Assembly: GCA_951406725.2 (NCBI GenBank)
Contig: OX597819.1
Span: forward strand, 49,848,001-49,912,000
Length of the DNA stretch: 64,000 bases
Direction: 5' to 3'
DNA from: Octopus vulgaris
Taxonomy: Eukaryota
A program made the translations under genes and the position numbers. The notes below the pieces were generated by a model that was not told the origin of the DNA, searched no databases, and was given only the letters and a program-made list of their open reading frames with translations. Positions 1,093-58,321 of this stretch are shown one piece after another. Numbering within the stretch: the first letter of the stretch is position 1; each line of letters begins with the position of its first letter.

Positions 1093-1233
1093 AATATATA
1101 TATATATATATCAACAATAAAGGAACGGCCATAATAGGCCATTCACCCACTAGAAATAACAGCCAAAGCTTCAACCGCAAATAAAAGTTAATTCAGTAAA
1201 CCAGGAGAAAATTTAAAAAACATTTACCCTGTA

Positions 1234-1340
1234 ATTTCTTATACGATATACCGTTTCATCTGCTGATTAATGGTAAACTAACCTGATTAAATTAAATCAA
1301 GCCAATCTTCCACAGGCCCTCAGATTCATCAGTAAGAAAT
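1234..1340 (-). ncRNA. Type I hammerhead ribozyme (492-bp unit, copy 1)
   Basis: Minus strand reads ATTTCTTA-CTGATGA-ATCTG...CAGAT-GAAA-CGGTATATCG-TA-TAAGAAAT: 8-bp stem I, 5-bp stem II base, short stem III, GUA site. Confidence 0.9.
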
Positions 1341-1725
1341 AGCCCAAGACGGAACAGATATTTTCACGAGGCATTTCCGACGTTGCCAAGTTTATATCTG
1401 ACCTAAAATTTTCAAATCGTCGCACTCGCGCCAAATTTATCGGCAGCAAATAAATATAAGCCGTCGATTCCATTACGGAATTAACCAGAAAATTCATAAT
1501 TAATCAATATAGGGTGGCAAAAAAATTTTGTAGAATTCTTTTGCCACCAGCGGCCTAGTAGGAAAAAATTAAAATAGTCATAGACCATTTTTAAGTTCAA
1601 CATCAACAATAAAGGAACGGCCATAATAGGCCATTCACCCACTAGAAATAACAGCCAAAGCTTCAACCGCAAATAAAAGTTAATTCAGTAAACCAGGAGA
1701 AAATTTTAAAAACATTTACCCTGTA

Positions 1726-1832
1726 ATTTCTTATACGATATACCGTTTCATCTGCTGATTAATGGTAAACTAACCTGATTAAATTAAATCAAGCCAATCT
1801 TCCACAGGCCCTCAGATTCATCAGTAAGAAAT
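1726..1832 (-). ncRNA. Type I hammerhead ribozyme (492-bp unit, copy 2)
   Basis: Same motif as 1234-1340; tcatcag at 1818-1824. Confidence 0.9.
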
Positions 1833-2217
1833 AGCCCAAGACGGAACAGATATTTTCACGAGGCATTTCCGACGTTGCCAAGTTTATATCTGACCTAAAA
1901 TTTTCAAATCGTCGCACTCGCGCCAAATTTATCGGCAGCAAATAAATATAAGCCGTCGATTCCATTACGGAATTAACCAGAAAATTCATAATTAATCAAT
2001 ATAGGGTGGCAAAAAAAATTTTGTAGAATTCTTTTGCCACCAGCGGCCTAGTAGGAAAAAATTAAAATAGTCATAGACCATTTTTAAGTTCAACATCAAC
2101 AATAAAGGAACGGCCATAATAGGCCATTCACCCACTAGAAATAACAGCCAAAGCTTCAACCGCAAATAAAAGTTAATTCAGTAAACCAGGAGAAAATTTA
2201 AAAACATTTACCCTGTA

Positions 2218-2324
2218 ATTTCTTATACGATATACCGTTTCATCTGCTGATTAATGGTAAACTAACCTGATTAAATTAAATCAAGCCAATCTTCCACAGG
2301 CCCTCAGATTCATCAGTAAGAAAT
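2218..2324 (-). ncRNA. Type I hammerhead ribozyme (492-bp unit, copy 3)
   Basis: Same motif; tcatcag at 2310-2316. Confidence 0.9.
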
Positions 2325-2709
2325 AGCCCAAGACCGAACAGATATTTTCACGAGGCATTTCCGACGTTGCCAAGTTTATATCTGACCTAAAATTTTCAAA
2401 TCGTCGCACTCGCGCCAAATTTATCGGCAGCAAATAAATATAAGCCGTCGATTCCATTACGGAATTAACCAGAAAATTCATAATTAATCAATACAGGGTG
2501 GCAAAAAAATTTTGTAGAATTTTTTTGCCACCAGCGGCCTAGTAGGAAAAAATTAAAATAGTCATAGACCATTTTTAAGTTCAACATCAACAATAAAGGA
2601 ACGGCCATAATAGGCCATTCACCCACTAGAAATAACAGCCAAAGCTTCAACCGCAAATAAAAGTTAATTCAGTAAACCAGGAGAAAATTTTAAAAACATT
2701 TACCCTGTA

Positions 2710-2816
2710 ATTTCTTATACGATATACCGTTTCATCTGCTGATTAATGGTAAACTAACCTGATTAAATTAAATCAAGCCAATCTTCCACAGGCCCTCAGA
2801 TTCATCAGTAAGAAAT
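2710..2816 (-). ncRNA. Type I hammerhead ribozyme (492-bp unit, copy 4)
   Basis: Same motif; tcatcag at 2802-2808. Confidence 0.9.
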
Positions 2817-3392
2817 AGCCCAAGACGGAACAGATATTTTCACGAGGCATTTCCGACGTTGCCAAGTTTATATCTGACCTAAAATTTTCAAATCGTCGCA
2901 CTCGCGCCAAATTTATCGGCAGCAAATAAATATAAGCCGTCGATTCCATTACGGAATTAACCAGAAAATTCATAATTAATCAATATAGGGTGGCAAAAAA
3001 AATTTTGTAGAATTTTTTTGCCACCAGCGGCCTAGTAGGAAAAAATTAAAATAGTCATAGACCATTTTTAAGTTCAACATCAACAATAAAGGAACGGCCA
3101 TAATATTATGGCCGTTCCTTTATTGTTGATGTTGAACTTAAAAATGGTCTATGACTATTTTAATTTTTTCCTACTAGGCCGCTGGTGGCAAAAAAATTCT
3201 ACAAAATTTTTTTTGCCACCCTATATTGATTAATTATGAATTTTCTGGTTAATTCCGTAATGGAATCGACGGCTTATATTTATTTGCTGCCGATAAATTT
3301 GGCGCGAGTGCGACGATTTGAAAATTTTAGGTCAGATATAAACTTGGCAACGTCGGAAATGCCTCGTGAAAATATCTGTTCCGTCTTGGGCT

Positions 3393-3499
3393 ATTTCTTA
3401 CTGATGAATCTGAGGGCCTGTGGAAGATTGGCTTGATTTAATTTAATCAGGTTAGTTTACCATTAATCAGCAGATGAAACGGTATATCGTATAAGAAAT
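3393..3499 (+). ncRNA. Type I hammerhead ribozyme (492-bp unit, inverted copy 1)
   Basis: atttctta 3393-3400, CTGATGA 3401-3407, atctg/cagat stem II, GAAAC 3476-3480, GTA 3489-3491, taagaaat 3492-3499. Confidence 0.9.
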
Positions 3500-3885
3500 T
3501 ACAGGGTAAATGTTTTTTAAATTTTCTCCTGGTTTACTGAATTAACTTTTATTTGCGGTTGAAGCTTTGGCTGTTATTTCTAGTGGGTGAATGGCCTATT
3601 ATGGCCGTTCCTTTATTGTTGATGTTGAACTTAAAAATGGTCTATGACTATTTTAATTTTTTCCTACTAGGCCGCTGGTGGCAAAAGAATTCTACAAAAT
3701 TTTTTTTGCCACCCTATATTGATTAATTATGAATTTTCTGGTTAATTCCGTAATGGAATCGACGGCTTATATTTATTTGCTGCCGATAAATTTGGCGCGA
3801 GTGCGACGATTTGAAAATTTTAGGTTAGATATAAACTTGGCAACGTCGGAAATGCCTCGTGAAAATATCTGTTCCGTCTTGGGCT

Positions 3886-3992
3886 ATTTCTTACTGATGA
3901 ATCTGAGGGCCTGTGGAAGATTGGCTTGATTTAATTTAATCAGGTTAGTTTACCATTAATCAGCAGATGAAACGGTATATCGTATAAGAAAT
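3886..3992 (+). ncRNA. Type I hammerhead ribozyme (492-bp unit, inverted copy 2)
   Basis: CTGATGA at 3894-3900; same stems as 3393-3499. Confidence 0.9.
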
Positions 3993-4218
3993 TACAGGGT
4001 AAATGTTTTTAAAATTTTCTCCTGGTTTACTGAATTAACTTTTATTTGCGGTTGAAGCTTTGGCTGTTATTTCTAGTGGGTGAATGGCCTATTATGGCCG
4101 TTCCTTTATTGTTGATGTTGAACTTAAAAATGGTCTATGACTATTTTAATTTTTTCCTACTAGGCCGCTGGTGGCAAAAAAATTCTACAAAATTTTTTTT
4201 GCAACCCTATATTGATTA

Positions 4219-4249
<31 letters not shown>

Positions 4250-4520: not shown

Positions 4521-4915
4521 ACCCATGTATCTGCGCAGGTATGGCTGTGTAGTTTGCTTTCCAAATATGTGACTCTAGGATCAGTCCCACAACTTACCAC
4601 TTTGGGGATGGTTTTCTAGCCGAGCAAAACTTGTTTGCATGGATCTGACAGATAGGAGCTGAAGGAACATCGCCCTATATGTGTGTGCATGCATGTGCCT
4701 ATATATATATATATATATATATATAAGTAGTTGAATGAATTATCCTAGTATGGATAAATCGGTTAACCGATACCCGGGTAGCAAATTCACGTCAGAAAAC
4801 ATGTTTGAAGCTACATGCCAAGGGCAGAATTCACGTGCTTTCGTGTGGAAATTTGTGTGTATTTTTTAATATAAATAAATGAAAGAATGGAGTCGAACGA
4901 CGATTTAACAAAATT

Positions 4916-5010
4916 CCTTTATTCTCGACATATGTTTCGAAGACTGCATATTCTTAATTCCGAAGGAATAAAGGGTGCATTACGCCGCCTTCTCATCAGG
5001 AAAGACAAGG
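4916..5010 (-). ncRNA. Type I hammerhead ribozyme, ATAT palindromic stem III
   Basis: Minus strand: tttc-CTGATGA-gaaggc...gtcttc-GAAAC-ATAT-GTC-gaga. Confidence 0.8.
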
Positions 5011-5220
5011 AACTTACGTCAGCATCATGACGAACAAAAACTTTTAGATGACTGCCCACACGGAGTCCATAGTGATGTGATCACTATGGACTCCGTGTGG
5101 GCAGTCATCTAAAAGTTTTTGTTCGTCATGTTGCTGACGTAAGTTCCTTGTCTTTCCTGATGAGAAGGCGGCTGGGCAGTCATCTAAAAGTTTTTGTTCG
5201 TCATGATGCTGACGTAAGTT

Positions 5221-5313
5221 CCTTGTCTTTCCTGATGAGAAGGCGGCGTAATGCACCCTTTATTCCTTCGGAATAAGAATATGCAGTCTTCGAAACATAT
5301 GTCAAGAATAAAG
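5221..5313 (+). ncRNA. Type I hammerhead ribozyme, ATAT palindromic stem III
   Basis: CTGATGA 5232-5238, stem II gaaggc/gtcttc, GAAAC 5292-5296, ATAT, GTC 5301-5303. First stem I pair is mutated relative to the other arm. Confidence 0.75.
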
Positions 5314-5349
5314 AAATTTTGTTAAATCGTCGTTCGACTCCATTCCTTC

Positions 5350-5421
<72 letters not shown>

Positions 5422-13290: not shown

Positions 13291-13935
13291 TTACTTGAAC
13301 ACCACGCATCCATGTCCAAGTAAGTTTATCTTAACCTTTTTGATGCAACTCTACTCTATACAGTTTTCTCCCCCATTCTTAACTTATTTCCTTTTTCTTC
13401 CCTTCACCGTTTCTTCTCTCTCCCTTTCTTGCTCTTTTTCCCCTCTCTTGTTACTTACCTGTGACCATCGTTCAACTTTCTTTTCCCCACGTGACCATCT
13501 TTCTTTTCCTGCTCGACGTGCTCATGATTGGACGTTTTCCGTCTCTCTCTTCTATCTTTTCTTTTTTCAAAGAAAATATTTCTCCCAGCGTTCATGATTT
13601 TCCTATCGTTCTGGTCTAACGACCCTCCATGTTTGTTTTCGTTTGGCATCCTTGTATGTCTCCACTGTTCTGTTTTTGTTCCCAACTTTGACTCTCCATA
13701 AATCCCAAATTTTATTTTGGAATTTATGAGAGCAACTGCTTCCGAAAGCTCATATTGTCGTTGAACGCTCGAAATGAGGTGTAGATAGACAGCTGACAAC
13801 TGATGAAGAGTCGTTCTCTGTGTTACTTGTCCTGTTTACCAAAATTTTCTCTCGTTGTTTGCATATTTAACTCGTTTGTTTTCGTACTTCATGTTGTTTG
13901 CGCAGTTGGTTACGTCCTGTACCCATATATGCACA
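13290..13935 (+). repeat. Pyrimidine-rich Penelope/retrozyme-like element, diverged relative of the ~880-bp family
   Basis: Downstream of the ribozyme it shares ttgtcctgt..gtcctgtac.catatatgc with 31395-31510. Flanked by (TA)n. Confidence 0.65.
13749..13816 (+). ncRNA. Hammerhead ribozyme with non-circularly permuted strand order
   Basis: CTC-ATA(site)-TTGTCG-tt-GAACGCTC-GAAA-TGAG-15 nt-TGACAA-CTGATGA-A-GAG-t-CGTTC. Stem III CTCAT/ATGAG, stem I TTGTCG/TGACAA, stem II GAACGCTC/GAG(t)CGTTC. Confidence 0.85.
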
Positions 13936-20741: not shown

Positions 20742-20861
20742 ATGCTTACAGCACTTGGGCTTTCCAAGCGGTCACCCATCTAAGTACTAACTAGGCTCAA
20801 TGTTGCTTAACTTCGGTGATCAGACTAGAACCGGTGCTTTCAACATGATATGGCCGTAAGC
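20742..20861 (-). pseudogene. 5S rRNA copy (probably retroposed) fused to a LINE 3' tail
   Basis: Minus strand gcttacggccatatcatgttgaaagcaccggttct..gatcaccgaagttaagcaac..gttagtacttagatgggtgaccgc..gctgtaagc is a full-length, 120-nt eukaryotic 5S. Confidence 0.9.
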
Positions 20862-26405: not shown

Positions 26406-27396
26406 CGCGTGTGTACATACATTCGTGCAAGTTTGCATACGTACGTACACACATACATCACATACATGCACACATACATACATTTATACATGCATAAATG
26501 CATGCATGCATTCGTACATACATGCATAAATGCATCATACATATATACATATATACGTACATAATACATACATACGTACGTGCGTACATGCATACATACA
26601 TACATATATGCATGCATGCATCCACACACACATACACACGCTCAGACACACAAATACATTACGACAGTTCTTAATACTCCTATTGATGTAAACTGGCGAC
26701 CCGTCCTTCCCTTATTGCCACTGTGCAATGCTGCAAAAAAAGTAAATTCCCTGCTATACGGCACATCAGTGCCAGGAGGGGTGCCGGATACCTGAATTTT
26801 CCGGATATCTAAACATCACTTTTTAAATTAACATTGCACCATACAAATGTAATTAAAGCTCTATAAATACATTAATATTATAATTATTATTCTGAAATTA
26901 GTAGAAATGAGACAAGTAGGAAGAAATAAAAGTATAATTTAAGAACACGTCTTATTAACCTAATAAAATACACCTACTGTTTCTTGCAGTATAATAAAAC
27001 ACTCTACAGTTATTTGAAAAGTAACGACCCATTTCAAATACAGTAGAAACTTTATTTCTTTTAATGACAATTAATTAACACAAATTAGTGCGAATTCTTT
27101 TGACTCTAATTAACATATTTTCCATTATATTTTTCCTGGGTTCCGGTTGCTTGAGAGTTTCCGTTATTTGAGTACCGGATAATCGGGAGTTTATCATAAA
27201 TCAATATACGTGTGTCTCACCGGAATACAAGTAGGAGTGGATTCCAAGTTGGGGTACAGAACTAAGAATGGCAATTGACTCACACGGCCAGCAGCAGTGT
27301 TGGTACAGCTGCGGATATCAACATCTACCGAATAGTATTTACCCAGAAAGGAAACTGGCTTTCTGAGTAAAGGTGGCGAGCTGACAGAAACGCTAG

Positions 27397-28415
27397 CCCG
27401 CCGGGAGATGCTATTTGCTGATGATGCCGCTCTGGTATCACACACAGAAGAAGCCCTACAAAGGCTCATCAACTGTTTTGAGCAAGCATGTGGCAACTTT
27501 GGCTTAGTTATTAGCCTCAAGAAGACCAACATCATGGGTCAGGCTACATCGACCATCCAAAACATACATATTGGAGACCACAGACTACAGGAAGTAGAGA
27601 AATTTACCTATCTTGGCTCTACCGTCACCTACTACCTATCCCTTGATACTGAGCTCAATATACGCATTGGCAAGGCAGCTGCTGTGATGGCCCAACTCTC
27701 CAAACGGGCATGGGACAACAATAAGCTGACCACAAAAATGAAGATTTACCAGGCATGTGTACTTAGCACTCTACTGTATGGAAGTGAGACTTGGACGCCA
27801 TACGACGCCATACGTCGCCTAAATATCTTTCACCTGCGTTGCCTCCGGAAAATCTTTCGCATCAAATGGCAGAATCATGTCCCCAACAAAGATGTCATCA
27901 AGCAAGCAGGAATACCAAGCATGTTTACACTCCTCACACAAAGACGTATGAGATGGATTCGACATGTTAGCCGTATGGAAGATGGCACAATCCCCAAGGA
28001 CATACTCAACGGAGAGCTTGCTAGAGGCACTAGGTCTGTGGGAAGACCGTTCTTACGATACAAGGATGTTTGCCAAAGGGACATGAATGCCTGCAACATC
28101 AATATTACCAACTGGGAAGCAGTTGCCAGCAACCGTGGAGATTGGCGACGTACCGTAAAAGAGGGAACACAAACGAGTGACATAGAGGGAGAGGAGAAAT
28201 AGAAAGACAAGAAAAGACGTCAACAAGAAAGTATGACATTACAACCAGCCAGGCAAAGTCTTCGCTACATTTGCGGCACCTGCCAGAGGGAGTGTTTGTC
28301 CAGGATAGGACTACACAGCCACAGCAGATGTATTAGGACATGAAATGAAAAAGCCGGACTAGATTATTTTATGCGCAACTCCATTGTCTCCCGAGACAAA
28401 AAGGATGCCAACAAC
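27397..28415 (+). mobile_element. 5'-truncated RTE-clade LINE
   Basis: ORF 27408-28202 has LFADDAAL, FTYLGS, RIGKA, IYQACVLSTLLYGSETW, FHLRCLRKI, WIRHVSRM. Downstream C2H2-like CGTCQRECLSRIGLHSH and a (caa)n tail. Confidence 0.93.
27408..28202 (+). CDS. RTE reverse transcriptase C-terminal fragment, 264 aa (transposon-derived, probably non-functional)
   Basis: Starts at the catalytic FADD motif and lacks the endonuclease and most RT subdomains. Confidence 0.8.
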   Translation: MLFADDAALVSHTEEALQRLINCFEQACGNFGLVISLKKTNIMGQATSTIQNIHIGDHRLQEVEKFTYLGSTVTYYLSLDTELNIRIGKAAAVMAQLSKRAWDNNKLTTKMKIYQACVLSTLLYGSETWTPYDAIRRLNIFHLRCLRKIFRIKWQNHVPNKDVIKQAGIPSMFTLLTQRRMRWIRHVSRMEDGTIPKDILNGELARGTRSVGRPFLRYKDVCQRDMNACNINITNWEAVASNRGDWRRTVKEGTQTSDIEGEEK

Positions 28416-30802: not shown

Positions 30803-31205
30803 GGGCGCAGGAGTGGCTGTGTGGTAAGTAGCTTGCTAACCGACCACATGGTTCCGGGTTCAGTCCCACTGCGTGGCATCTTGGGCAAGTGTCTTCTACT
30901 ATAGCTTCGGGCCGACCAAAGCCTTGTGAATGGATTTGGTAGACGGAAACTGAAAAGAAGCCTGTCGTATATATGTATATATATATGTATGTGTATGTAT
31001 ATGTTTGTGTGTCTGTGTTTGTCCCTCTAGCATTGCTTGACAACCGATGCTGGTGTGTTTACGTCCCCGTCACTTAGCGGTTCGGCAAAAGAGACCGATA
31101 GAATAAGTACTAGGCTTACAAAGAATAAGTCCTGGAGTCGATTTGCTTGACTAAAGGCGGTGCTCCAGCATGGCCGCAGTCAAATGACTGAAACAAGTAA
31201 AAGAG
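30803..31205 (+). mobile_element. SINE family A, full length
   Basis: ggcgcaggagtggctgtgtggtaag (A box) .. gggttcagtccc (B-box-like) .. microsatellite .. ggtgctccagcatggccgcagtcaaatgactgaaacaagtaaaagag. Confidence 0.92.
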
Positions 31206-31314
31206 TACACTGTCGTTACCGTCTTGCTTTTTTTACCATTTTTTACCCCTCTGCGAAAAGATCTCAGAATTTTAATTGATTTGCTTTTCACAGGAAGGAA
31301 GTTTCTTCGAAGTA

Positions 31315-31378
31315 TACGTCTCGCTTTTATCCTTCGAAACGTAGAGTAGATGAAACCTTAGCGACTGAAGAAGGGGAT
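31315..31378 (+). ncRNA. Hammerhead ribozyme with non-circularly permuted strand order (copy 1)
   Basis: TAC-GTC(site)-TCGCT-ttt-ATCCTTC-GAAA-CGTA-16 nt-AGCGA-CTGAAGA-AGGGGAT. Stem III TACGT/ACGTA, stem I TCGCT/AGCGA, stem II ATCCTT/GGGGAT. Confidence 0.8.
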
Positions 31379-32198
31379 TTTTCGTTGTGCTTATTGTCCT
31401 GTATCTCTTTTTTTCTTTTTTGCTTGTCCTGTTCCTTGGTTTGTGTCTATGTTTTTCGTCTCTCTATGTGTTCGACGTCTTTTTGGTGTCCTGTACACAT
31501 ATATGCGTGTATATGTACATGTAGAGGTAGGTACGTACATATATGTTTATATATATGCATATGTTCTATTTTATTAACATATGATACGACTAAACGCACG
31601 CACCCTATTAAGTAAGATTGTTCTGTTTATCAAGTTAGCCTTGATATTAACTCTCACGCGACTCTGCATCTTTCTTTCTTTCTCTCCCATTCCCTTTTTC
31701 GTCCTTTTTCCCTCACTTAACTTGTCTCTTCCTCTCTCTCTCATTCTTCATTCTCTCTCTCCCCCTCACCATTCTTCATGGTCTCCTCGCACCATTCCCC
31801 TTCTTCTCTCTCTTCCTCTTGCTCCTCCTCCCCCATTCCCGTCGTCCATCTGCGACGATACTTCCGTCGTAACTGCTATCCTGTCTTTTCTCGCCCGCCT
31901 TCTAAGGCCACTGGTCGACATTCTTTCTCTCTCGTCGTCCACTATAATCCAGCGTTTGCATTACTTTTTTCGTCTGGCGTAAACAGCCCTTCTTATCTTG
32001 TTCTCCTTGTCCTGTCTCTCACTGTTATATATTTATTTTTCAACTGTTTATATATAATTTTTTTTTTTTTTTTTTACTGTTTATATGTTTGTACTGTCGT
32101 TACCGTCTTGCTTTTTTTACCATTTTTTACCCCTCTGCGAAAAGATCTCAGAATTTTAATTGATTTGCTTTTCACAGGAAGGAAGTTTCTTCGAAGTA

Positions 32199-32262
32199 TA
32201 CGTCTCGCTTTTATCCTTCGAAACGTAGAGTAGATGAAACCTTAGCGACTGAAGAAGGGGAT
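32199..32262 (+). ncRNA. Permuted hammerhead ribozyme (copy 2)
   Basis: Identical to 31315-31378; CTGAAGA at 32249-32255. Confidence 0.8.
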
Positions 32263-33079
32263 TTTTCGTTGTGCTTATTGTCCTGTATCTCTTTTTTCTT
32301 TTTTGCTTGTCCTGTTCCTTGGTTTGTGTCTATGTTTTTCGTCTCTCTATGTGTTCGACGTCTTTTTGGTGTCCTGTACACATATATGCGTGTATATGTA
32401 CATGTAGAGGTAGGTACGTACATATATGTTTATATATATGCATATGTTCTATTTTATTAACATATGATACGACTAAACGCACGCACCCTATTAAGTAAGA
32501 TTGTTCTGTTTATCAAGTTAGCCTTGATATTAACTCTCACGCGACTCTGCATCTTTCTTTCTTTCTCTCCCATTCCCTTTTTCGTCCTTTTTCCCTCACT
32601 TAACTTGTCTCTTCCTCTCTCTCTCATTCTTCATTCTCTCTCTCCCCCTCACCATTCTTCATGGTCTCCTCGCACCATTCCCCTTCTTCTCTCTCTTCCT
32701 CTTGCTCCTCCTCCCCCATTCCCGTCGTCCATCTGCGACGATACTTCCGTCGTAACTGCTATCCTGTCTTTTCTCGCCCGCCTTCTAAGGCCACTGGTCG
32801 ACATTCTTTCTCTCTCGTCGTCCACTATAATCCAGCGTTTGCATTACTTTTTTCGTCTGGCGTAAACAGCCCTTCTTATCTTGTTCTCCTTGTCCTGTCT
32901 CTCACTGTTATATATTTATTTTTCAACTGTTTATATATAATTTTTTTTTTTTTTTTACTGTTTATATGTTTGTACTGTCGTTACCGTCTTGCTTTTTTTA
33001 CCATTTTTTACCCCTCTGCGAAAAGATCTCAGAATTTTAATTGATTTGCTTTTCACAGGAAGGAAGTTTCTTCGAAGTA

Positions 33080-33143
33080 TACGTCTCGCTTTTATCCTTC
33101 GAAACGTAGAGTAGATGAAACCTTAGCGACTGAAGAAGGGGAT
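33080..33143 (+). ncRNA. Permuted hammerhead ribozyme (copy 3)
   Basis: Identical to 31315-31378; CTGAAGA at 33130-33136. Confidence 0.8.
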
Positions 33144-33339
33144 TTTTCGTTGTGCTTATTGTCCTGTATCTCTTTTTTCTTTTTTGCTTGTCCTGTTCCT
33201 TGGTTTGTGTCTATGTTTTTCGTCTCTCTATGTGTTCGACGTCTTTTTGGTGTCCTGTACACATATATGCGTGTATATGTACATGTAGAGGTAGGTACGT
33301 ACATATATGTTTATATATATGCATATGTTCTATTTTATT

Positions 33340-33401
<62 letters not shown>

Positions 33402-56560: not shown

Positions 56561-56658
56561 TATATATTTACATACATACATATACATACATACATACATA
56601 CATACATACATACATACATACATACATACATACATACACATATACATATATATATATG

Positions 56659-57065
56659 AAAGAATTTTTGCGTAATAAGATAAAAAGCCAAGGCTGTGTA
56701 GATATTAGAGCATTTATAGATAGGTCTTACAGCTGTTTCTAGGATATTTATTAATTATATCCCTTCCTTGGAGACGGTGTGAGAGGATGGTTAAGTTATA
56801 ATTAGTTTAGATGTGATACAAAATAGAGAGTGAGATGGAGGAAAGATCAATATCCATACATATCTTGCATCTATTTTCTTTCCTCCACCTCACTCTCTAT
56901 TTTGTATCCCATCTAAATTAATTATTACTTAACCATCCTCTCACACCGTCTCCGATGAAGGGAGATAATTTTATAAATATTCTAGAAACAGCTATAAGAC
57001 CTATTTATAAATGCTCTAATATCTACACAGCCTTGTTTTTTTTATCTTATCACGCAAAAATTCTT
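56659..57065. repeat. Fold-back repeat (arms of about 190 bp) with decayed hammerheads
   Basis: 56659-56845 is inverted against 56875-57065. Plus arm reads gtct-CCGATGA..GAAAC-AGCT-ATA-agac (56948-57000); the minus arm keeps GAAACAGCTGTAAGAC. Confidence 0.85.
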
Positions 57066-57218
57066 ATATACACACGCTGACATAGAACCAACGTTGAACC
57101 CCTTATTCGCAAAATTACCGAATCTGGAACTTAACTATGGTGTGTCTATAGCACTTATTCAGCATTACCTTTGGGTCTCAATGACACCATTATCTCTTAT
57201 TACTTCAACTTCTCGCCA

Positions 57219-58258
57219 TGTGCTCATTGTCCTGTACTCCCTTTTTTTCTTGTCCTGTTCCTTGGTTTGTGTCTTGTTTTTCGTCTCTCTATGTGTTCGA
57301 CGTCTTTTTCGTGTCCTGTACACATATATGCGTGTATATGTACATGTAGAGGTAGGTACGTACATATATGTTTATATATATGCATATGTTCTTTTATTAA
57401 CATATTATACGACTAAACGCACGCACCCTCTTAAGTAAGATTGTTCTGTTTATCAAGTTAGCCTTGATATTAACTCTCACGCGACTCTGCATCTTTCTTT
57501 CTTTCTATTCCATTCCCTTTTTCGTCTTTTTTCCCTCACTTAACTTGTCTCTTCCTCTCTCTCTCATTCTTCATTCTCTCTCTCCCCCTCACCATTCTTC
57601 ATGGTCTCCTCGCACCATTCCCCTTCTTCTCTCCCTTCCTCTTGCTCCTCCTCCCCCATTCCCGTCGTCCATCTGCGACGATACTTCCGTCGTAACTGCT
57701 ATCCTGTCTTTTCTCGCCCGCCTTCTAAGGCTACTGGTCGACATTCCTGCTCTCTCGTCGTCCACTATAATCCAGCGTTTGCAATACTTTTTTCGTCTGG
57801 CGTAAACAGCCCTTCTTATCTTGTTCTCCTTGTCCTGTCTCTTACTGTTATATATTTATTTTTCCACTGTTTATATATATTTTTTACTGTTTATATGTTT
57901 GTACTGTCGTTACCGTCTTGCGTTTTTTACCTTTTTTTACCCCTCTGCGAAAAGATCTCAGAATTTTAATTGATTTGCTTTTCGCAGGAAGGAAGTTTCT
58001 TCGAAGATACGTCTCGCTTTTATCCTTCGAAACGTAGAGTAGATGAAATCTTAGCGACTGAAGAAGGGGTTTTTTCGTTGTGCTCATTGTCCTGTACTCC
58101 CTTTTTTTCTTGTCCTGTTCCTTGGTTTGTGTCTTATTTTTCGTCTCTCTATGTGTTCGACGTCTTTTTGGTGTCCTGTACACATATATGCGTGTATATG
58201 TACATGTAGAGGTAGGTACGTACATATATGTTTATATATATGCATATGTTCTTTTATT

Positions 58259-58263
<5 letters not shown>
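57219..58263 (+). repeat. Second locus of the ~880-bp family (860-bp period, about 1.2 copies)
   Basis: tgtgctcattgtcctgtac at 57219 and 58079; highly similar to 31385-32460; ends ttattaaca then (TA)n. Confidence 0.92.
58008..58070 (+). ncRNA. Permuted hammerhead ribozyme (copy 4)
   Basis: TAC-GTC-TCGCT-ttt-ATCCTTC-GAAACGTA..AGCGA-CTGAAGA(58058-58064)-AGGGG. Confidence 0.75.

Positions 58264-58321
<58 letters not shown>

Follow-up and report, generated by a model that had tools for sequence, protein, structure and literature searches.

What is the tandem repeat that occupies positions 31209 to 33344 of the window (the whole 64-kb stretch of Octopus vulgaris contig OX597819.1 analysed here), and what does the hammerhead-like motif carried in each of its units do? 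The initial annotation had described a non-coding tandem repeat with units of ~882 bp and three identical motifs in all (starts 31315, 32199, and 33080), and comparison of the units bore this out: they measure 884 bp and 881 bp followed by a 371-bp end piece, differ only in poly-T length, contain one hammerhead motif each at these starts, and have no credible ORF (ORFs of 134 and 170 codons look like by-products of pyrimidine richness). The 3' end of the insertion passes into (AT)n, and its 5' end adjoins the 3' tail of a ~400-bp repeat (30803-31207, + strand) that is present in many copies within the window and that we take to be SINE-like. A fourth motif (start 58008), absent from the initial list, was found inside a further copy (57219-58270) that is 93–98% identical, and an older relative lies upstream, giving the following features:

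31209..33344, + strand: the whole insertion, 5'-truncated, with 2.4 tandem units.
32185..32262, + strand: ribozyme copy 2, predicted cut 3' of C32204.
33066..33143, + strand: ribozyme copy 3, predicted cut 3' of C33085.
31321..32204, + strand: predicted unit-length RNA between two cuts, 884 nt and 43% U, as placed from the cut sites.
57219..58270, + strand: separate insertion of the same subfamily with one ribozyme, predicted cut 3' of C58013.
13300..13935, + strand: older related subfamily with the same SGC ribozyme and an AUA triplet, predicted cut 3' of A13754.

Elsewhere in the window, a 5S rRNA copy (20743-20861, - strand) scored above the Rfam gathering score, and a 288-codon frame (27336-28202, + strand) resembles the C-terminal part of a LINE reverse transcriptase.

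The first ribozyme copy (31301-31378) was assigned as follows:

31301..31305, + strand: 5' strand of stem IIIb (GTTTC), whose partner is 31352-31356 and which lengthens stem III past the internal loop; from covariation and folding.
31315..31325, + strand: block S, with the stem IIIa 5' strand TACG, U16.1, C17, and the stem I 5' strand TCGCT.
31329..31343, + strand: block G, with the stem II 5' strand ATCCTTC, GAAA (31336-31339), and the stem IIIa 3' strand CGTA.
31344..31359, + strand: internal-loop strand GAGTAGAT, the stem IIIb 3' strand GAAAC, and a 3-nt link.
31360..31378, + strand: block C, with the stem I 3' strand AGCGA, the CUGAAGA core, an extra A (31372), and the stem II 3' strand GGGGAT.

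The blocks thus follow the order cleavage site, GAAA, CUGANGA, which is that of type SGC hammerheads. The permuted order proposed in the initial annotation therefore stands, but the topology is not new, having been published as type SGC (PMC10085705); what is new here is the setting of an SGC hammerhead in an animal genome and in a retroelement. A full-text literature search, in which few subscription journals were covered, returned no SGC-type permuted hammerhead reported from an animal genome. Stems I (TCGCT/AGCGA) and III (TACG-T/A-CGTA) pair as had been proposed, and the motif at 13749-13816, which lies within 13300..13935 (subfamily copies 80–86% alike), indeed differs in the letters of every stem and retains the pairing. 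Two details of the earlier drawing had to be replaced. Its stem II put an A.C mismatch where G10.1-C11.1 belongs; the register that is consistent across subfamilies has the extra A after CUGANGA and then a G-C pair (18 of the 18 rows with letters there). Its 16-nt “linker” contains a GAAAC that pairs with GTTTC at 31301-31305 and so forms the covarying stem IIIb. Because the extra A follows CUGANGA, published SGC patterns would miss the motif; a strict SGC descriptor lacking the extra base gave zero SGC matches in the window, and an Rfam search of the unit gave no match to a hammerhead family.

Across natural copies, the core letters are kept (CUGANGA, GAAA, and UH), with U16.1-A15.1 in 18/19 and G10.1-C11.1 in 18/18 rows, many of which were chosen by patterns containing GAAA and CTGANGA, with UH outside those patterns; position 7 (U, A, G) is the sole variable core position. 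Stem II was paired in 97% of cells in the 19 natural copies, mostly as G.U and partly fixed by the search patterns. In the CCUUC subfamilies, which include that of the window, stem II in the catalytic register consists of G-C, G.U, G.U, and G-C, and an alternative pairing, in which G8 and A9 are sequestered, is predicted to be stabler (-7.9 vs -5.5 kcal/mol, for isolated duplexes). Folding left the unit RNA 46% paired. Plain folding of 31284-31400 recovered stem IIIb, with a stability not above that of shuffles (z +1.5), pseudoknots being beyond such folding. A stem I-II helix was sought in 16 window tests (best p 0.0045, uncorrected), with suggestive pairs in some subfamilies and none in the window's own; our first guess, a pairing of GAUGAAA and UUUCGUU, did not outscore shuffles. 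The closing helix P4 shows conservation and appeared in 5 of 7 constrained folds, with covariation that was not significant (p 0.11). Stem IIIb and stem I are separated by 0–4 bases only, and therefore a monomer would have to bend sharply at the GAAG/GAGUA internal loop, or two motifs would have to swap strands. This internal loop may resemble a loop-E motif.

How widespread is the motif, and is it more than a chance arrangement of letters? Two disjoint core patterns gave 4,526 and 3,446 matches in the whole genome, against 0 and 1 for the reversed controls, which puts the genome-wide count at ~8,000 SGC cores. The common 3' motif had 9,513 genome matches and the 5' half of the window subfamily 533 exact ones; a DNA search with one unit gave at least 109 matches among 40 of 2,077 candidates, mostly 94–100% alike and on many contigs. 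Unit spacings range from ~590 to 985 bp across the family, and the sampled copies form about 19 subfamilies. This is a large, still young, and real family. At 30 loci chosen by the 3' motif alone, the copies that reach the ribozyme have the SGC order or decayed forms of it, and no ORF was found in cis; two weak type I descriptor matches at these loci overlie decayed SGC copies.

For covariation, 115 distinct motifs were reduced to 88 intact ones by removing 27 that are 5'-truncated, the 5' partner strands lying outside the search patterns. Stems I and IIIa pair at 8–9 of 9 positions in 74 of the 88 copies, compared with 355 of 4,624 swapped partners, and permutation across 19 subfamily representatives gave p 5e-5 both for stems I plus IIIa and for stem IIIb. 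The latter reads GTTTC/GAAAC in the window and CTGTCT/AGACAG or CTAGTTCGA/TTGAATTAG in other subfamilies. In an alignment of 19 natural copies, 89.5% of cells were paired and both partners vary in 17 of 25 pairs, a level matched by 0 of 500 shuffles and by slid controls only to 41–57%, with the caveat that the rows were hand-picked, that the structure was read from the same rows, and that relatedness and row choice inflate the counts. A similar pattern run on metagenome and viral contigs returned matches at chance level only, 1 of 64 having 8 of 9 stem pairs. The motif is thus not a chance occurrence, because genome-wide matches vastly outnumber reversed controls and the pairing found in 74/88 copies compares with 1/64 in those contigs.

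Does the motif cut? Here, the break-off points of insertions are informative. A 20-mer lying 3' of the ribozyme had 2,003 matches, and for the first 100 of these we mapped the start of each insertion, a sample made up of sister subfamilies on one contig (C1) and not of the window's own subfamily. Eighteen of the 100 insertions begin on the 3' side of the predicted cut at a distance of 0–14 nt (1,074 at-risk positions), compared with 48 ends in the 620 nt upstream (21,789 at-risk positions), which is a 7.6-fold excess (p about 1e-9). Within 28 nt on each side of the predicted cut, there were 25 ends on the 3' side vs 2 upstream; every other upstream 15-nt window held at most 5 ends, those far upstream being only roughly mapped, and several copies start at the predicted scissile bond or within one base of it. 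The excess was seen again at 63 other loci (18 ends in 581 vs 15 in 2,387, p 9e-6), a set from which 22 duplicates and 3 loci without reference were dropped and in which one locus was counted twice. Of 80 copies that reach the predicted cut site, 62 continue through it, and therefore most templates would have been uncut, rejoined, or circular.

As a positive control, we used the type I family at 1110-4220, a 492-bp tandem that is inverted at 3104/3105 and has one canonical type I hammerhead per unit. Ends accumulated 0–28 nt 3' of its cut (16 in 2,560 vs 33 in 24,407, p 7e-6), with 27 internal units counted as read-through and the paired inverted ends non-independent; this pile-up is broader than the SGC one, and the 0–14 nt interval alone gave p 0.012. 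The control family has 1,947 genome matches to a 20-mer and often occurs as head-to-head pairs. Palindromic repeats were also observed at 4869-5361, with a minus-strand type I hammerhead near 4999, and at 56653-57070, with a CCGATGA...GAAAC core near 56950 seen by eye.

The simplest reading of the 5'-end excess would be that the reverse transcriptase ran off cleaved RNA, and we consider it likely, on genomic evidence of this kind, that the SGC motif cuts its own RNA in the living animal. The cut that had been proposed 3' of C31320 gains support in the same way, with the 5' ends of related insertions accumulating just 3' of that site. A different account is that the motif is a conserved structure of hammerhead ancestry which is no longer an efficient cleaver and acts as a binding or folding element for a Penelope protein, with the reverse transcriptase stalling on it. 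The weak stem II and its stabler rival pairing fit such a stall, as do the majority of copies (62/80) that continue past the site, and an upstream TTCG-like stretch could pair with (C)TTCGAAA into a hairpin that stalls copying; moreover, hammerhead mutants described in PMC11167929 left insertion by a Poseidon protein in vitro unaffected, and those autonomous Neptune-like families that were examined do well with no hammerhead recognisable in them. We nonetheless regard stalling as improbable. The catalytic core letters and the U-A pair stay constant across subfamilies while the stems change, the excess of ends does not extend past the scissile bond (25 vs 2), with several copies beginning there or at most one base off, and the strands under the pile-up are 5' strands, which would already have been freed when the enzyme arrived.

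If cleaved RNA is a likely template, what copies it back into the genome? The 3' ends of the insertions fall at two fixed places in the unit:

31575..31582, + strand: main fixed 3' end of insertions, given as position in the unit (36/38 terminal pieces), and the likely start of reverse transcription.
31583..31624, + strand: optional tail, ending at a second fixed 3' end ~45 nt further (12/85 related insertions).

Terminal pieces stop at unit position 374 in 36 of 38 cases, and their 5' ends are scattered. The 3' end was readable in 85 copies, of which 70 use the main site, 12 the second site ~45 nt beyond it, and 3 continue into the following unit; (TA)n comes next in 67 of the 70 main-site copies, and one copy of the window subfamily extends to unit position 406, in the tail region. 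Inverted 5' pieces were found in 2 of 44 short copies, and an adjoining inverted piece at 3 of 30 older-subfamily loci. Taken together, a constant 3' end with an optional tail, partial tandems, 5' ends that vary, and (TA)n targets support the Penelope-type mobilisation suggested by the initial annotation. That the tandem copies could instead be a satellite-like duplication at the DNA level, with the motif incidental, is suggested by the window units being identical save for poly-T length, yet this account is scarcely credible: the copies are spread over many contigs, sharing a fixed 3' end and differing in where the 5' end falls, and this signature of reverse transcription refutes it, and the covariation across subfamilies also speaks against it.

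Multi-unit arrays preserve some record of how they were made. Six of 21 have a variant in both units that is found in no other array, and these fit one template copied twice; the others are mosaics whose switch points are not placeable. Two sequence variants are intermixed in an array of seven motifs from the window's family (L012/L022/L021/L018, G000:C5:22863277-22869081), which suggests template switching or repeated self-insertion. At one young array, an older-subfamily copy lies 609 bp upstream in the same direction (L012 1018-1627), a nested insertion in a common (TA)n tract. Of the data sets containing the unit, none is recorded as RNA and 14 are presumed to be; assembled contigs from four of these presumed-RNA runs, each of a different study, cover 25–30 of 30 bins of the unit and join across the unit boundary; being contigs, with the same join present in tandem DNA, they are uninformative on cleavage, level, and circles. 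A depth step near 32210 in these contigs was accounted for by sister subfamilies.

Young intact RT-GIY-YIG elements are present in the genome. An autonomous Penelope element with the same terminal repeat was looked for and not found in the Neptune-like families examined: terminal repeats of the 781-aa, 785-aa, and older families lacked an SGC motif and resembled the unit in nothing but AT-rich simple sequence, and in the young families (L129, L433/L434) these repeats had no recognisable hammerhead. This scoring covered 150 of 6,136 GIY-YIG and 147 of 15,660 RT candidates, with other clades barely sampled. In the young Neptune-like families (L129 1481-6200, G000:C5; L433/L434), a 479-aa unannotated ORF overlaps the 781-aa RT-GIY-YIG ORF in another frame. 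At locus L077, an SGC element is joined 5'-to-5' with a truncated Neptune-like ORF, which fits the use of the same enzyme by both elements, as judged from this single junction; it is the only true head-to-head case, two further matches being to flanking repeats and not to ORFs. ORFs in the same strand near SGC copies (L214, L224, L440) proved to be separate insertions in common (TA)n tracts.

These searches also bear on the idea that the units derive, as a detached terminal repeat, from an autonomous SGC-bearing Penelope-like family that went unfound or is extinct in this genome. Vertebrate retrozymes are described as related to Penelope terminal repeats (bioRxiv 10.64898/2026.07.22.740005), and the small share of candidates scored leaves such a family room to exist; on the other side, no ORF stands in cis upstream of the SGC motif at the loci checked, and the nearby ORF pieces inspected are separate insertions in common (TA)n tracts. 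We think this origin rather unlikely. It agrees with our preferred explanation on catalysis and differs from it on the mobiliser.

That preferred explanation, SGC cleavage together with Penelope-type mobilisation of a non-coding family, is in our judgement probably correct. The array at 31209..33344 would then be one insertion of a large non-coding Penelope-type family whose unit carries an S-G-C hammerhead motif. Transcription would run through the tandem units, and each motif would fold into an extended stem III hairpin. The terminal loop of this hairpin, with the cut site, GAAA, and strands of stems I and II, would pair with the CUGANGA strand further downstream, for which either the internal loop would have to bend sharply or two adjacent motifs would have to pair with each other. 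The RNA would cut itself 3' of GUC, converting part of it to unit-length pieces. Reverse transcription may start internally, ~260 nt 3' of the cut. The enzyme would run off cleaved templates where the RNA ends, giving about a fifth of copies, and would pass the site on templates that are uncleaved, rejoined, or circular; copying back into (TA)n microsatellites would likely be performed in trans by a Neptune-like reverse transcriptase-endonuclease. Circularisation of the unit RNA is plausible, if slightly short of an even prospect. More tentatively, and leaning against it on balance, we entertain a permuted ribozyme with an architecture of its own, built on the long stem III and its loop pairing, that evolved from a Penelope-type hammerhead in an animal lineage, is active in vivo, and makes tandem transcripts into ~880-nt circles which stem III keeps closed and which parasitise Neptune-like enzymes whose hammerheads have decayed; a strand-swapped dimer of neighbouring units could be part of it. 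If that were true, permuted hammerheads would be hidden but widespread in animal retroelements, missed by canonical patterns, and the 5'-end pile-ups of old insertions would be a genomic read-out of ribozyme activity.

Until now, non-circularly permuted ribozymes had been known only among orphan environmental RNAs without a host or a role, and the octopus family supplies a host genome, a retrotransposition setting, and thousands of natural variants for structure work. The break-off points of insertions serve as fossil evidence pointing to a cut in vivo, and their position offers a sequence-only test applicable to any family. The result bears on the open question of what hammerheads do for Penelope-like elements, and it suggests that elements scored as lacking a hammerhead merit a new search with permuted patterns that allow an extra base.

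Finally, how does the family compare with known systems? The type SGC hammerheads (HRIMA-1 and variants; Eckert et al. 2023, PMC10085705) cleave in vitro at 0.007–0.19 per minute and come from metatranscriptomes, none of those described there being placed in the genome of a known organism. The octopus motif shares with them the S-G-C order, the conserved core, stems I and III, a predicted stem II, and a 2–3 nt link between stems I and II; it differs in residing in an animal genome, in thousands of copies and a retroelement setting, and in its CUGA(U/A/G)GA-A-G with the extra A and its distal stem IIIb. As reported in the same source, the search patterns demand CUGAUGAG or CUGAUGAUG, and the ribozymes need a stem I-II helix. 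Hammerheads with an additional base before stem II have been reported elsewhere: an active one from a viroid has an A there and loses some of its rate, to a moderate degree (PMC3705267), and in Penelope hammerheads stem II begins with an unpaired base (PMC4209133).

Like the animal non-LTR retrozymes described by Cervera and de la Pena 2020 (PMC7229834) and in the preprint of Li et al. 2026, the family consists of non-coding tandem units with one hammerhead each in thousands of copies, and dependence on Penelope-like elements has been proposed for those too. Non-LTR retrozymes are characterised in PMC7229834 by a type I ribozyme and highly self-paired circles of 170–400 nt. The octopus units, known from DNA and as predicted RNA, are instead of SGC type, ~590–985 bp long across the family (881–884 bp in the window), U-rich, and 46% paired. 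The initial annotation's retrozyme family therefore holds as a description of how the element works and does not hold as a class: with a ribozyme that is not type I and a monomer outside the published size range, the unit is retrozyme-like in working and should not be filed as a retrozyme.

There is likeness also to Neptune-type Penelope elements, with which the family shares partial tandems, inverted 5' pieces, (TA)n targets, an optional 30–40 bp tail, a hammerhead near the 3' end, and an unpaired base before stem II (Craig et al. 2021, PMC8557442; Frangieh et al. 2024, PMC11167929); these sources present an optional tail that arises from the use of two reverse-transcription start sites as a Penelope signature. 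It is unlike them in having no ORF in the unit and no terminal-repeat match to the Neptune-like families examined, and the Penelope hammerheads described so far in these sources are of type I, whereas the octopus motif is SGC. The supplement of PMC8557442 flags eight Naiad families with half a hammerhead core, the other half standing on either side at 35–50 nt, and these half-core motifs could be permuted hammerheads.
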